Shown here piece by piece: positions 141-59,161 of a stretch of DNA of 64,000 bases. Numbering within the stretch: position 1 is the first letter of the stretch; each line of letters starts with the position of its first letter. The position numbers and the translations under genes are program-made. Below the pieces are notes generated by a model, which was not told where the DNA came from, made no database searches, and saw only the letters and a list, made by a program, of their open reading frames with translations. Source of the DNA: Mycobacteriales bacterium (GTDB taxonomy: Bacteria > Actinomycetota > Actinomycetes > BP-191); the NCBI GenBank assembly GCA_035536235.1, contig DATLOQ010000045.1, positions 40,882 to 104,881 of the forward strand, written 5' to 3'.

Positions 141-229
141 GGTGGAGTCGCGTAGTGGCCGAGCGCGCACGCCTCGAAAGCGTGTGAGGGGGCAACCTCT
201 CCGTGGGTTCAAATCCCACCTCCACCGCC
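141..229 (+). tRNA. tRNA-Ser (anticodon CGA)
   Basis: Cloverleaf readable by eye: acceptor ggtggag/ctccacc, anticodon loop cTCGAaa, long variable arm, T-loop ggttcaaatcc, discriminator g plus CCA. Confidence 0.85.
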
Positions 230-9263: not shown

Positions 9264-9367
9264 GCGCCCATCGTCCCCCTCGCCCCGCCGAATCACTCCC
9301 CGTCACGGAGACCCCTGCTGCAGGCGAGCCCGGCCGGGTGTCTGCCGCACCCTCTAGACTGCCCGGC

Positions 9368-9460
9368 AGACCCCTCGCGCGACGCGCATCCTGTGAACCT
9401 CCCCAGGGCCGGAAGGCAGCAAGGATAAGCGGGCTCTGCCGGGTGCGCGGGGGGTCCTTC
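9368..9460 (+). ncRNA. ffs: Signal recognition particle RNA (small/4.5S type, ffs)
   Basis: Domain IV core CCAGGGCCGGAAGGCAGCAAGG matches the universally conserved SRP RNA motif (E. coli CCAGGUCAGGUCCGGAAGGAAGCAGCCAAGG); terminal helix cccctcgcgc / gcgcgggggg; conserved position just upstream of dnaX. Confidence 0.7.
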
Positions 9461-9488
9461 TCGGAGGCGGCTGCGCCTCCACTCCTGC

Positions 9489-18184: not shown

Positions 18185-18262
18185 TGGTCGGGATGGGGAG
18201 ATTCGAACTCCCGGCCTCCACGTCCCGAACGTGGCGCGCTAACCAAGCTGCGCTACATCCCG
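18185..18262 (-). tRNA. tRNA-Pro (anticodon CGG)
   Basis: Reverse complement: CGGGATGTAGCGCAGCTTGGTTAGCGCGCCACGTTCGGGACGTGGAGGCCGGGAGTTCGAATCTCCCCATCCCGACCA. Confidence 0.85.
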
Positions 18263-52606: not shown

Positions 52607-53364
52607 CAGTGCGGGCCTGCCGGCACGTCGGGCTGCGTCGTCACCGGCGCGTGCTCCTCAAGCAGCGGCGCGGTCTCGTTGTAGGTGAGCAGTCGCATCC
52701 CGCCGCGCGGACCCAGGCCCTCGTCGAAGGCATATGTCGTCACCGAGCAGTTGGCGACCTCGGCGGCTCCGTCGATGGTCAGGACCTGCTCCTCGGTCAT
52801 CGACTCGATCACGTAGCGGAAGAGCAGCACGACGACCTGGTGCGCGATGACCACCACCTGCTCGCCGTCGCAGTTGCGGCGCATGTCGTCGAGAACCGAG
52901 CGGACGCGCAGCGCGACGTCGGACCACGACTCACCACCGGGGGGCCGGTGATAGAACTTGCCCAGCCTCGTGCGCCGCTGCGACTCCTCGGGGAAGATCG
53001 TCGTGATGCCGCGTCGGGTGAGCCCGTCGAGGATGCCGAACTCACGCTCGCGCAGCCGCTCGTCGAGCACCGTCGAGACTGTCAGCCGCCCTTCTTCGGC
53101 CATGATCTGCGCAGTTTGCTGGGCCCGCAGGTAGGGCGACACGTAGAGCGCGTGGGGTTGGTCGGCGCCGGGTTGGTGCGACCACCAGACACCGAGAGCC
53201 CGAGCCTGCTGGCGGCCCAGCTCGGACAGCGGCACGTCCATGTCCCGGTCCGCGATGTCGATGCGCTCGAGGCTGTTGGCCTCGGCATGGTCGCGGGCGA
53301 CGTTGCCGGCGCTCTCGCCGTGCCGGATGACGCTCAGTCGTGCGGGCCAGCTGCTGGTGGGCAC
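52606..53364 (-). CDS. Histidine phosphatase family protein (phosphoglycerate mutase-like)
   Basis: RHGES catalytic motif. Confidence 0.8.
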   Translation of the reverse strand: MPTSSWPARLSVIRHGESAGNVARDHAEANSLERIDIADRDMDVPLSELGRQQARALGVWWSHQPGADQPHALYVSPYLRAQQTAQIMAEEGRLTVSTVLDERLREREFGILDGLTRRGITTIFPEESQRRTRLGKFYHRPPGGESWSDVALRVRSVLDDMRRNCDGEQVVVIAHQVVVLLFRYVIESMTEEQVLTIDGAAEVANCSVTTYAFDEGLGPRGGMRLLTYNETAPLLEEHAPVTTQPDVPAGPH

Positions 53365-53408
53365 GGGGTCATCCTGCCCGACAACGCGGCCGTCGAACGC
53401 CGTACAGC

Positions 53409-53445
53409 AAACGGCGCTTCAGCGGGCCAGCCGCTGAAGCGCCGT
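53409..53445. terminator. Perfect 16-bp hairpin between two minus-strand genes
   Basis: aacggcgcttcagcgg-gccag-ccgctgaagcgccgtt. Confidence 0.5.
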
Positions 53446-53707
53446 TACCTCACGAGTACCGCGGTTACCAAGCGTGCTCCTGATCGTCGAAGCGGTTGGG
53501 CGCTTGCGCGTCTCCTCACCTCGACGTGCCTCCCGCGGCTGGTCGCACGTGGGTGCTCATCAGTACTCGTGAAACGAGCGTGAGGAGGGGGGACTCGCCC
53601 ACCGCGCCGGCGGCTCGCACTGCCAGTTGTACGCCGGTGCAGCGCCGTTGTGAACCCCTCCGATGGGACTACTTTTCGCCGGGCGCCGGCCACGGGCTGT
53701 CATCGCC

Positions 53708-54571
53708 TCAGCAGCGGGTTGCCCGGCGTCGGGCGGCCAGCATCCGCCACCCGAGAGCGACCGCGCCGACGCCAACTGCGGCCCCGGCGAGAACCGGGAC
53801 GGGAGGGCGCGTGAAGGTCGGCACTCTGGACCGCAGCCCTACCGGGCGGGTGAAGTCGCGCACCTCCCACCCGCGCTGGACCGCAACGCGACGCAGCGCC
53901 TTGTCGGGGTTGACGACGACCGGGTGCCCGACGGCGTCGAGCATGGGGAGATCGGTGATCGAGTCGCTGTAGGCCCAGCAGTCGGCGAGGAACCAGCCCT
54001 GCTCAGCCGCGAGGGCTTCGATTGCCTCCGCCTTGTGCACGCCGTAGGCGTAGAAGGCGATGTCGCCGGTGTAGCGCCCGTCTTCGATCACCATGCGCGT
54101 GGCGATCGCGTGGTCCGCTCCGACCATCTCGGCGATGGGTGTCACCACCTCCTCCCCCGAGGACGAGACGATGACCACCGCCCGCCCGGCAGCCTGATGG
54201 CCTTCGATGAGGGAGACCGCTTCGTCGTAGACCAGCGGGTCGATGAGGTCGTGGAGGGCCTCCTCGACGATGGAGCGCACCTGGTCGACCGGCCAGCCGG
54301 CGCACAGCCCCTTGAGGTAGTCGCGCATCCGAGCCATCTGGTCGGCGTCGGCACCCGCGATGAGGTAGACGAACTGCGCGTAGCTGCTCCGAAGCACAGC
54401 GCGCCGGTTGACGAGCCCGCCCTGGTAGAAGGTCCGGCCGAAGGCGAGCGTGCTGGACTTCGCGATGACCGTTTTGTCCAGGTCGAAGAACGCCGCGCCG
54501 CCCATGAGCCAAAGATAGTTCTCCGAGGAGGTTTGGCCGGGGAGGAGGTGGGCATCCTCAGCAGTGAGCAC
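53708..54571 (-). CDS. HAD-IB family hydrolase
   Basis: AAFFDLDKTV motif I, SSSGEEVV motif, C-terminal hydrophobic tail. Confidence 0.75.
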   Translation of the reverse strand: MLTAEDAHLLPGQTSSENYLWLMGGAAFFDLDKTVIAKSSTLAFGRTFYQGGLVNRRAVLRSSYAQFVYLIAGADADQMARMRDYLKGLCAGWPVDQVRSIVEEALHDLIDPLVYDEAVSLIEGHQAAGRAVVIVSSSGEEVVTPIAEMVGADHAIATRMVIEDGRYTGDIAFYAYGVHKAEAIEALAAEQGWFLADCWAYSDSITDLPMLDAVGHPVVVNPDKALRRVAVQRGWEVRDFTRPVGLRSRVPTFTRPPVPVLAGAAVGVGAVALGWRMLAARRRATRC

Positions 54572-54935
54572 GTCACACAGTCAGCGCGGGGGGGTGTACA
54601 AGATGCGCAGAGTCGTCGCTGGAGACCTGGACCAGGTGTCCGAGACCCGCGTCGTCGAGCACCGCTCCGTTGCTGAGACCATCGCCTCTGTCATCACCGT
54701 CCTCTACGCCGCGGTGATCGCGCTCATCGGCATCGACGTGCTGCTCGAAGCCCTCGATGCCCGCGAGGAGAACGGTTTTGTCAGCGCCATCGACGGGCTG
54801 AGCGGCGCCTTCACCAAGCCTTTCGACGGCGTCTTCGCCGATCAGCGTTACTGGGCCACGGCGCTTATCGCCGCCGTCGTCTACACCGTGATATATCTCA
54901 TCGCCATGGCGGCCTTACGACGCGACCCCGCCTAG
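54564..54935 (+). CDS. Small membrane protein (unknown function)
   Basis: Two predicted TM helices; start ambiguous (54564 or 54603). Confidence 0.35.
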   Translation: MSTSHSQRGGVYKMRRVVAGDLDQVSETRVVEHRSVAETIASVITVLYAAVIALIGIDVLLEALDAREENGFVSAIDGLSGAFTKPFDGVFADQRYWATALIAAVVYTVIYLIAMAALRRDPA

Positions 54936-54944
54936 CGCCCCCCA

Positions 54945-55060
54945 CGTTCTGACGCCATCCCCCCCCGGCGTCAGGCGCGTCTGGCTCACCCCCCGGAGCC
55001 AGACACCGGACGACCCCCGCCACCCCCCCCGGCGGGGGTCGTCCCATGTCCGGGGTCAGG
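54945..55060 (+). ncRNA. 6C small RNA (actinobacterial; B11-like)
   Basis: Three consecutive hairpins, each with a poly-C loop: ctgacgcc[atcccccccc]ggcgtcag; tctggctc[accccccg]gagccaga; ggacgacccccgcc[acccccccc]ggcgggggtcgtcc. Lies immediately upstream of the cpaE-like gene. Confidence 0.65.
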
Positions 55061-55290
55061 TGGGATCCTGCGCTGGCCCGTGCAGGACCTCGGCCCTCCC
55101 TCCCGCACGCCGCCCTGGTGATCAACGGTCCGTTGTTGCTCTCCAGTGCAGAAGTCCCCACCAGAGATGTCGCGGGTCGCCACTTCGGTGCGCATCCGCC
55201 GTCCACAGATCGGCGCCCGGGCGGTCACCGCCCGACCCGACGGTCCCAGGCTGAGCTTCTCCTCTCTCGCCTACTGCCCTTGGGGGCCCG

Positions 55291-56358
55291 ATGACTCGCC
55301 CGCTGCTCGTCACCGCTGATGAGGCCCGTTTGGACGACCTGCTGCGGCTCTGCGCCGCGGCGGGCGTCGAGCCGCAGGTGGCTCGCGACGTCGCCGCCGC
55401 GCGTCGCGCCTGGTCGGGCGCCACCGTCGTGCTGCTCTGCGACGACCTCGCCGCGTCACTCGCTCTTCCGGGTCTTCCCCGACGCCCCGGCGTCGTCCTC
55501 GTCGGCGCCGACCTCGACGACGCATCGGTGTGGCGCCGCGCCGTCGAGCTCGGTGCCGAGCACGTCGTCTTCCTGCCCGACGCGGACAGCTGGCTGGTGG
55601 ACCGGCTGGCCGGGGCCGGGGAGGCGGACCGTCTCGGCGTGGTGGTCGGGGTGATGGGCGGCCGGGGCGGGGCCGGCGCGACCACCTTGTCCGTCGCGCT
55701 CGCCGTCGCCTCCCAGCGACTGGGGCATCGGACGACCTTGTGCGACGTGGATCCACTCGGGGGCGGAGTCGATCTCGTGCTGGGGAGTGAGAGCGCACCA
55801 GGAGCCCGCTGGCCGGACCTGACCGGTGACGTTCGAGTGCCCGGGGGAGTGCTGTCGCTCGCTCCGTCCATCGACGACGTGGCGATGGTCAGCTGGGACC
55901 GCGGCGACGTCCTAGACCTGCCGCCGGGGGTGTGCGCCTCCGTGCTCAGCAGTGCGCGCCGATCGAGTGATGTGGTCGTCGTAGACCTGCCCCGCTCGGC
56001 TCCCTGGTGCGCGGTCGAGGGCTTGACCGCACTGGACACGCTGCTCCTCGTGGTTCCGCTAGAGGTGCGGGCCGTGGCCTCGACCGCACGAGTCGCCTCT
56101 GCTGTCGCGCCGTACGTCGACGACCTCCGGTTGGTGGTTCGCAGGCGGTCGGTGCCCGGTCTCGACCCGACCTTCGTGGGGGCCACTCTGGGGCTTCCGG
56201 TGGCCGGCGTGTTCAAGCCCGAGCGCTCCGTGGTCTCCGACCTCGACCGCGGGCTGCCGCCGGCAGGGGGCCGCGGCCACCTGGCCCGGCTGGCGACGCG
56301 TCTGGTGCGGGATTTCGTCGGGTCACCGGCGCGCGGAGCGGCCGGCGCGGCGGCGTGA
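55291..56358 (+). CDS. CpaE/TadZ-like Tad-locus ATPase-fold protein (septum-site-determining-like)
   Basis: N-terminal receiver-like region; GGRGGAGATTLSVALA deviant Walker A. Confidence 0.75.
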   Translation: MTRPLLVTADEARLDDLLRLCAAAGVEPQVARDVAAARRAWSGATVVLLCDDLAASLALPGLPRRPGVVLVGADLDDASVWRRAVELGAEHVVFLPDADSWLVDRLAGAGEADRLGVVVGVMGGRGGAGATTLSVALAVASQRLGHRTTLCDVDPLGGGVDLVLGSESAPGARWPDLTGDVRVPGGVLSLAPSIDDVAMVSWDRGDVLDLPPGVCASVLSSARRSSDVVVVDLPRSAPWCAVEGLTALDTLLLVVPLEVRAVASTARVASAVAPYVDDLRLVVRRRSVPGLDPTFVGATLGLPVAGVFKPERSVVSDLDRGLPPAGGRGHLARLATRLVRDFVGSPARGAAGAAA

Positions 56359-59019: not shown

Positions 59020-59161
59020 GCCCAGTGCGGCCGACCTTTCCACAGATGTGCCGTTGGGTCGCCACCAGAATCCGCCGGTCATCGACCGTGGTGCAGCGAC
59101 GGCACCCGCTGTCGCTGCCGGCTCGCAACGACCCGGCAGGGCTCGAAATACCGGAGGCACC

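Follow-up and report, generated by a model that had tools for sequence, protein, structure and literature searches.

A putative three-hairpin form of the 6C small RNA behind a small membrane-protein gene in uncultured Mycobacteriales

The 6C small RNA (sRNA) of actinobacteria is defined by two C-rich loops (PMC5014011; PMC8388888), whereas three consecutive hairpins with poly-C loops are found at positions 54948-55044 of the forward (+) strand of the DNA analysed here, a window of 64,000 nucleotides (nt) from the metagenome-assembled genome (MAG) of an uncultured Mycobacteriales bacterium (contig DATLOQ010000045.1). The locus raises the question of whether the additional 5' hairpin belongs to the RNA, and of how such an RNA would be transcribed at a site where a small open reading frame (ORF) ends just ahead of it. 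The reading preferred here, to which a probability of roughly 0.7 is given, is that of a lineage-specific three-hairpin 6C that shares the promoter of the preceding small-ORF gene and in which the third loop would be an added seed. Three features set this RNA apart from other members of the family, namely a conserved third C-rich loop, a location directly behind a clade-specific ORF, and a family-typical promoter that lies upstream of that ORF.

Hairpin architecture and family membership

The three stem-loops have stems of 9, 9 and 14 bp and loops with C8, C6 and C8, respectively. HP0, the extra 5' hairpin (54948-54975, +), pairs UCUGACGCC with GGCGUCAGG in a 9-bp stem around the C8 loop AUCCCCCCCC; HP1, the first canonical 6C hairpin (54979-55004, +), combines the 9-bp stem GUCUGGCUC/GAGCCAGAC with the C6 loop ACCCCCCG; and HP2, the second canonical one (55008-55044, +), closes the C8 loop ACCCCCCCC with a 14-bp GC-rich stem. 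An initial annotation of this DNA had placed three back-to-back stem-loops here, on the + strand, with stems of at least 8 bp and loops of six to eight C, and both the folding of the region and a scan for hairpins agree with it in position, strand and architecture. Folding predicted the three hairpins, with a minimum free energy of -81.2 kcal/mol for 54930-55070 (141 nt) against -58.7 +/- 3.7 kcal/mol for dinucleotide shuffles (z = -6.2), and none of 200 shuffles folded as stably. The hairpin scan, deliberately relaxed to loops of C5 or more and stems of at least 6 bp, returned eight poly-C-loop hairpins on both strands of the window; three of them are HP0, HP1 and HP2, while the other five are isolated and weaker, with C5-C6 loops and stems of 6-7 bp. 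RNAfold also drew a long-range helix enclosing the three hairpins, which was treated as chance GC pairing because its partners differ from locus to locus.

When the whole window was scanned against Rfam 15, the 6C model (RF01066) matched 54974-55047 on the + strand with 59.4 bits, above its gathering score of 47, and over its full length (model positions 1-75 of 75). The match spans HP1 and HP2, which are adjacent and each carry a loop run of at least six C (ACCCCCCG and ACCCCCCCC), and leaves HP0 outside. Window 54948-55047 (+) is, with hardly any doubt, a member of the actinobacterial 6C sRNA family. The family had been correctly named in the initial annotation, as had the contrast between a described consensus of two C-rich loops and the three present here, in keeping with a model that covers only HP1 and HP2 and with the two-loop definition of the literature; its accession, RF00520, was wrong, the matching 6C family being RF01066.

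The genomic setting is likewise that of 6C. The host is actinobacterial, as had been proposed, the Ssd and small-ORF proteins being 100% identical to proteins of a Mycobacteriales bacterium MAG. The RNA lies upstream of, and co-oriented with, the ssd/tad cluster, whose first gene, ssd (55291-56358, +), encodes a CpaE-like septum site-determining protein (TIGR03815, 299 bits over a cut-off of 154, E = 4e-89) and is followed by genes for a TadA-type ATPase, two T2SSF membrane proteins and a DUF4244 protein, so that the earlier placement beside a cpaE-like/ssd gene and upstream of a Tad locus also stands. On the opposite side, a divergent gene encodes a HAD-family hydrolase (53708-54571, -; PF12710, E = 1.3e-33), which is found at the equivalent position in relatives and in Streptomyces. 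In 12 related loci, 6C occupies this same site on the same strand as ssd.

Hairpins are frequent in high-GC genomes, and the minus strand of the region, on which the loops would be poly-G, also folds stably (-88.6 kcal/mol, z = -4.2), which would allow the structure to be a chance product of GC-rich DNA or the functional strand to be the opposite one. The RF01066 match is nonetheless confined to the + strand, every locus keeps the same orientation of the RNA towards ssd and the promoter, the rest of the window has few C-loop hairpins, and both covariation and loop conservation are present, as described below. The probability left to this explanation is negligible, and the strand-specific model match, the fixed orientation and the covariation were taken to exclude it. 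Three ORFs that overlap the hairpins (54898-55206, -; 54986-55228, -; 55046-55294, +) were rejected as coding, because the intergenic length varies between 170 and 355 nt among relatives, with large indels.

Conservation of the third hairpin

HP0 and HP1 are separated by a gap of only 3 nt, in which no promoter can fit, so that HP0 is expected in the same RNA as HP1 and HP2. Related loci were gathered through Ssd and through the upstream small ORF; the contig search with one Ssd protein yielded 12 loci, and an alignment query might yield more. The three-hairpin form was found in nine distinct loci (the window, L001, L013, which is identical to L014, L016, L017, L018, L139, L140 and L141), all of them from uncultured Mycobacteriales or metagenomes. 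A pattern scan of metagenomes (CCCCCC-N16-30-CCCCCC-N12-26-CCCCCGCNNNCCCCC) gave no true 6C locus after filtering among the matches listed, these being non-specific poly-C DNA, mostly contig ends and tandem repeats.

In the alignment of the nine loci, the HP0 loop is a run of 7-10 C in every one of them, and 96.3% of the HP0 cells are paired. Three HP0 pairs have changed on both sides, namely 13:36 from AU to GC in two loci, 14:35 from CG to UA in one, and 16:33 from CG to UA in three. The unpaired cells come mainly from L141, where the hairpin is kept with a one-base bulge and a largely different stem sequence. HP1 and HP2 are 100% paired and nearly invariant across the alignment, with one pair changed on both sides in HP1 and a single compensatory pair in HP2 (CG to UA in four loci). 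For the whole structure, none of 500 column shuffles reached the covariation score observed, and when the 3' partners were shifted by 1-3 columns as a control, 28-45% of cells stayed paired and no double change was left. Covariation over nine close relatives thus provides modest but consistent evidence for a conserved RNA helix.

In a neighbour-joining tree of Ssd, computed without bootstrap, the nine three-hairpin loci are monophyletic and nested among two-hairpin loci, which fits a single gain of HP0. The long poly-C loop has been retained while its stem drifted, and this points to the loop as the selected part. Taken from these comparisons, HP0 very probably is a selected part of the same RNA as HP1 and HP2.

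A simpler role for HP0 would be that of a terminator or 3'-end stabiliser of the small-ORF mRNA, its poly-C loop being incidental. It starts 12 nt past the stop codon of that ORF, terminators devoid of a U tract are common in actinobacteria, where C-rich stem-loops have been proposed as alternative terminators (PMC6486639), and terminator stems also show compensatory changes. A loop of 9-12 nt, on the contrary, weakens a terminator hairpin, and yet the 7-10 C were kept in all nine loci while the stem changed. Moreover, in four two-hairpin loci that lack HP0 the ORF runs straight into HP1, indicating that it does not need HP0 to end its mRNA, and efficient termination at HP0 would abolish a promoterless HP1 and HP2 only 3 nt downstream, both of which are nearly invariant. 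The scan for terminator consensus sequences, finally, gave no match here. A role restricted to ending the mRNA is therefore considered very unlikely. Regarding the origin of HP0, a duplication of HP1 was also looked at; the 5' arms match at 4-6 of 8 positions at the best offset, which is suggestive at most and weakly supported, and no such claim is made.

The small reading frame and the transcription unit

The ORF that precedes the RNA (54603-54935, +) encodes a 110-aa protein with two hydrophobic segments that belongs to no Pfam or NCBIfam family, and its stop codon ends 12 nt before HP0. Searches of Pfam and NCBIfam with E-values up to 5 returned only insignificant matches to membrane proteins (YGGT with E = 0.04 in one member). 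Conservation of the protein, at 110-115 aa and with freely varying synonymous sites, extends over 13 loci, and its family is tiny, with 33 clusters among 5.8 billion proteins, every one of them from a MAG or a metagenome and none from a cultured organism. It is absent from the other loci examined, those of Frankiaceae, Sporichthyaceae, Catenulispora, Jiangellales and Streptomyces. In 13/13 loci, 6C begins 9-20 nt past the stop codon of the small ORF, the first element being HP0 in the nine three-hairpin loci and HP1 directly in the four most divergent ones (L142, L143, L144 and L146). The initial annotation, right in its reading of a + strand 6C, had left out that the RNA abuts this conserved ORF and shows no promoter motif of its own.

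A promoter motif of the SigB/SigF type, GTTT-N15-GGGCAT, was instead matched upstream of the ORF, at 54531-54555 (+), with the -35 element at 54531-54534 and the -10 element at 54550-54555. It lies 48-49 nt upstream of the ATG of the small ORF and 394 nt upstream of HP0. Positions 54531-54554 conform to the group 3 SigB/SigF-type definition (GTTT at -35, GGG(T/A/C)A at -10, spacing of ~14-17 nt); the SigF consensus of M. smegmatis is GTTT-N14-19-GGGTA (PMC4694148), and nine SigB homologues of S. coelicolor share this promoter consensus (PMC8346170). The motif was spotted by eye and then scanned by script as GTTT-N14-17-GGG[TC]A, which has a single match on both strands of the window (128 kb) and 20 matches in 296 kb of related loci. 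All 19 of the per-locus matches (19/19) fall either upstream of the small ORF or, in ORF-less loci, just upstream of 6C, 12-57 nt ahead of the first listed 6C hairpin. An equivalent motif precedes the small ORF in 12/13 loci, L141 having a GGGAA variant, and a GGGAC variant occurs in L003. It stands directly upstream of 6C in L002, L005, L007, L008-L011 and the Streptomyces locus L148, and the Catenulispora and Sporichthyaceae loci carry it immediately upstream of the 6C hairpins, as L148 does.

Between the start of the ORF and the RNA, by contrast, nothing resembling a promoter was detected. A promoter immediately upstream is a trait typical of 6C, if not part of the formal definition of the family, and no motif for one was seen at this site. 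Neither SigB/F-like motifs nor TTGnnn-N16-19-TAnnnT occur within the small ORFs of 13/13 loci, TAnnnT is absent from the last 60 nt + 25 nt of the ORF in 12/13 loci, and a sigma-70 consensus scan of 54500-55400 found nothing. Nor does the 3' end of the ORF bear the mark of an overlapping element, since the last 30 codons show no added constraint at synonymous sites, with third-codon-position entropy not lowered near the end (0.85-1.14 bits against 0.63-0.84 bits elsewhere). The stretch between stop codon and first hairpin is short (9-20 nt) and not conserved.

The geometry in 13/13 loci is that expected of an sRNA embedded in a 3' untranslated region (UTR), directly after the stop codon, on the same strand and with no promoter motif of its own. 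With a SigB/SigF-type promoter upstream of the ORF and none before 6C, the two are most likely one transcript, and we infer that 6C would lack a promoter of its own in this clade. On balance, co-transcription of small ORF and 6C, with the RNA forming the 3' end of the ORF mRNA, is judged the more probable arrangement.

The opposite arrangement would make the three-hairpin 6C an independent sRNA gene, with an unrecognised promoter in the last codons of a small ORF that is a mere neighbour. All the 6C genes studied experimentally are independent units with a promoter immediately upstream; C. glutamicum 6C has a mapped start site and a SigA/SigB promoter (PMC5014011), in Streptomyces the promoter SCO3557p stands directly before the 5' hairpin, and motif scans cannot detect every alternative-sigma promoter. 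Against this speak the lack of SigB/F-like and SigA-like motifs in the 13 ORFs and of TAnnnT at their 3' end and spacer in 12/13, the unconstrained final codons, the short and unconserved spacer, and the fact that the ancestral 6C-type promoter has been kept, but upstream of the ORF. An independent gene is accordingly regarded as unlikely, albeit not strikingly so.

Enterobacterial sRNAs derived from 3' UTRs, for instance CpxQ and SroC, share the promoter and the terminator of their parent mRNA. The co-transcribed 6C proposed here would resemble them in its position directly after a stop codon on the same strand, in having no recognisable promoter of its own and in its strong terminal hairpin. 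It would differ in that the 6C family is normally free-standing, so that an sRNA already in existence would have been joined to an mRNA, instead of a seed evolving within a UTR, and in that the co-transcript of the window is a prediction from sequence. 

As for the 3' end, a terminator consensus scan of 54500-55400 gave no match, including no U-tailed terminator at HP0 or HP2. Neither hairpin is followed by the U tract of a canonical intrinsic terminator, which joins such a tract to a GC-rich hairpin, and the tail after HP2 reads CCAUGUCCGG, while the Streptomyces and Catenulispora homologues of 6C do have U-rich tails. HP2 probably forms the 3' end, or a terminator lacking a U tract. The sequence CAUGUCCGG right after HP2 (55045-55056), beyond the end of the Rfam model, is conserved in this clade, in Frankiaceae and in Streptomyces L148, and could act as a signal for the 3' end or for processing, or as a pairing partner.

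On the other side of the promoter, at the start of the HAD gene (54505-54525, in - strand sense), TATCTT, a -10 hexamer of the TAnnnT type, lies 6 nt before the ATG, in a block AAGATAGT / AGACTAGT that is conserved in the relatives L001, L013, L017 and L018. By eye, this suggests that the HAD mRNA is leaderless and transcribed divergently from the small-ORF promoter.

Known 6C RNAs, possible mechanism and neighbouring elements

The best-studied relatives, the 6C RNAs of M. tuberculosis and M. smegmatis (B11; RF01066; Mai et al. 2019, PMC6486639), share with the window two adjacent GC-rich hairpins whose loops hold at least six C, and the RNA of the window passes the covariance model of that family and shares its place upstream of ssd on the same strand. 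An added stem-loop at the 5' side has a precedent, since M. tuberculosis 6C has been predicted to form the loops L1-L3, although L2 and L3 alone are C-rich and conserved (PMC6486639). L1 is neither, while the 5' loop found here is a conserved run of C7-C10; and, unlike in M. tuberculosis, a 110-aa ORF stops 12 nt ahead of the RNA, which has no promoter motif directly before it. C. glutamicum 6C (cgb_03605; Pahlke et al. 2016, PMC5014011), an ~80-nt structure of the same family with at least six C in each of two loops, is under LexA control, and its housekeeping-type promoter (TTGTCT / CATAAT) serves both SigA and the group-2 SigB (PMC5014011). The window has, on the contrary, a motif of the group-3 SigB/SigF type, and the ORF stands between it and the RNA.

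The Streptomyces 6C (scr3558; L148) is closer in layout, with the same order of HAD gene, 6C and ssd-tad and the same promoter type, GTTT-N14-16-GGG(T/C)A. In L148 that promoter directly adjoins a 5' hairpin capped by a UUCG tetraloop, two C-loop hairpins come next, and there is no small ORF, whereas in the window the ORF stands between promoter and HP0 and the loop of the 5' hairpin is poly-C. The S. coelicolor promoter SCO3557p (GTTTGC-N14-GGGTAC-ACCATGGAA) has been mapped and assigned to the ssd operon SCO3557-3551 (PMC8346170 Table 2), and in a heterologous two-plasmid system six SigB homologues (SigB, F, H, K, L and M) recognised it (PMC8346170). The corresponding sequence of L148, GTTTGCCTGAGAAGGCCTTCGGGTACACCATGGAAG (2084-2116), is located immediately upstream of the UUCG-loop hairpin and the two canonical C-loop hairpins. 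Because a sequence of this type abuts the 6C hairpins, the comparison indicates that the published SCO3557p is the 6C promoter; PMC8346170 mentions neither 6C, nor scr3558, nor any small RNA.

That assignment to the SCO3557-3551 operon also bears on another explanation, by which the element would be a cis-acting leader of ssd/tad, reached by read-through from the upstream promoter, with its C-loops sequestering a G-rich ssd ribosome-binding site. Rfam types 6C as 'Cis-reg', the RNA is always upstream of ssd on the same strand, and the ribosome-binding region of ssd contains a run of G4 or longer in 7/13 loci. Nonetheless, the 6C RNAs of M. tuberculosis and M. smegmatis are trans-acting (PMC6486639), and that of C. 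glutamicum builds up as a stable small RNA (PMC5014011); in addition, the distance between 6C and ssd varies by large insertions between ~85 and 245 nt, and a separate conserved motif, TCCACAGAT, sits between 6C and ssd and recurs before the pilin-like gene. A purely leader-like element appears improbable in view of these points, bearing in mind that one RNA could play both the cis-leader and the trans-sRNA role.

Elsewhere in the 6C family, a 5' hairpin is either missing or capped by an ordinary loop. The Jiangellales locus L007 is an independent case of a 5' hairpin acquiring a C-rich loop. Like the window, it shows three consecutive C-loop hairpins upstream of ssd, and a SigB/F-type motif, GTTT-N15-GGGCA, ends 12 nt before them; it differs in having no small ORF, in scoring below the Rfam 6C gathering threshold and in being phylogenetically separate. 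The loops in L007 (2709-2835) read CCCCCC, CCUCCCCCUU and CUCCCCCCC. A full-text literature search in a limited collection found no three-C-loop 6C, no UTR-embedded 6C and no link of 6C to SigF-type promoters.

For the three-hairpin 6C co-transcribed with the small ORF, the following course can be proposed. The SigB/SigF-type promoter upstream of the ORF would drive ORF and 6C as one transcript, possibly ended by HP2 with no U tract, from which 6C might be released by processing of the small-ORF mRNA. Activity of M. tuberculosis 6C requires the C-rich loops L2 and L3, which contact the targets directly, L3 being the main one and L2 partly redundant (PMC6486639). By analogy, the single-stranded C-rich loops would pair with G-rich stretches at or near the ribosome-binding sites of targets, with no need of a chaperone, and repress them; with a third loop the RNA would possess one more seed, and with it higher avidity, redundancy or an additional target. 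Considered on this analogy, the chances that the third loop is a working seed are about even.

One possible extra target would be the small ORF itself, which carries a G5-G7 run at its ribosome-binding site. In the window this is a G7 run at 54588-54594 (+), a candidate, if speculative, pairing partner of the poly-C loops. A run of G5 or longer within -20..-1 of the small-ORF start is present in 8/9 three-hairpin loci and in 0/4 two-hairpin loci, the background frequency being ~1.5% of 20-nt windows. An action of the extra loop on its own mRNA through this run is a speculative suggestion. G runs of G5-G7 occur at both the small-ORF and the ssd sites, and, as noted, runs of at least G4 at ssd in 7/13 loci. 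In its most extended form, the scenario would have an ancient, free-standing 6C taken over as the 3' end of the mRNA for a new small membrane protein, under the ancestral promoter; a third poly-C loop would then have been gained, the G5-G7 run at the small-ORF ribosome-binding site being its pairing partner in cis or in trans, and the outcome would be a self-regulating, dual-function transcript coupling the membrane protein to the 6C regulon beside the ssd/tad cell-division and pilus locus. This full sequence of events is considered rather improbable.

Several points weigh against a three-hairpin 6C that shares the promoter of the ORF and uses an added seed. The covariation rests on nine closely related sequences, with ~3 independent events in HP0, the helix of L141 needs a bulge (scored as unpaired cells), and the neighbour-joining tree of Ssd has no bootstrap support. 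The association of HP0 with a G-rich ribosome-binding site is confounded by phylogeny, the contrast comprising little more than two clades. A hairpin that follows a stop codon so closely might be no more than the terminator or 3' stabiliser of the ORF. The alternative-sigma promoters of actinobacteria are diverse, and motif scans may miss one inside the ORF. Transcript ends, processing and sigma dependence, lastly, are all read from the genome of an uncultured MAG.

6C is one of the few sRNAs conserved across Actinobacteria, and its C-loops act with no chaperone in M. tuberculosis. A variant with a conserved third C-loop, which apparently arose at least twice, would be evidence that seed loops can change in number during evolution, and it would offer a ready-made test of whether loops are additive or redundant. 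The order of ORF and 6C, with the promoter moved upstream, would be the first case of a 6C within the 3' end of an mRNA, and SCO3557p as a 6C promoter would tie the RNA to the SigB/SigF family of stress and sporulation sigma factors outside Corynebacterium.

The motif TCCACAGAT between 6C and ssd (55202-55210, +) is conserved in nearly all related loci and might be a promoter or operator of ssd/tad. A second copy (59039-59047, +) is found ~120 nt upstream of the DUF4244 (pilin-like) gene, the two occurrences in the window comparing with 0.27 matches expected by chance. The same two places are occupied in L001 (2914/6749), L013 (2912/6733), L017 (2912/6790) and L018 (2914/6763), and in L005, L006, L007, L143 and L146 two TCCACAG copies ~29 nt apart precede ssd. 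From this distribution, TCCACAGAT resembles a promoter or operator element common to the ssd/tad genes, and its presence before both ssd and the pilin-like gene suggests that the tad genes have their own control site. The spacer from 6C to TCCACAGAT is ~150 nt longer in the window (55060-55200) and in L016 (about 545-690) than in other clade members, with intergenic lengths of 355 nt (window) and 336 nt (L016) against 209-261 nt; the inserts are dissimilar by eye.

Further away, a strong palindromic hairpin, CGGCGCUUCAGCGG...CCGCUGAAGCGCCG, is located between the histidine-phosphatase and HAD genes (53342-53447, +). It gives a sub-threshold match to Scr6925, a Streptomyces RNA (28.3 bits against a gathering score of 50), and is probably a terminator. 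In mycobacteria there is a link between Ms1 and 6C (PMC9569102); here, Rfam was scanned permissively over 53300-55300 for Ms1 or for a model covering HP0, which revealed no Ms1-like RNA and returned only sub-threshold matches, to Scr6925 and two miRNA models. The ordinary RNA genes of the window lie at 141-227 (+), 9366-9462 (+) and 18188-18262 (-), and comprise two tRNAs, one of them with a long variable arm, and a small signal recognition particle (SRP) RNA.

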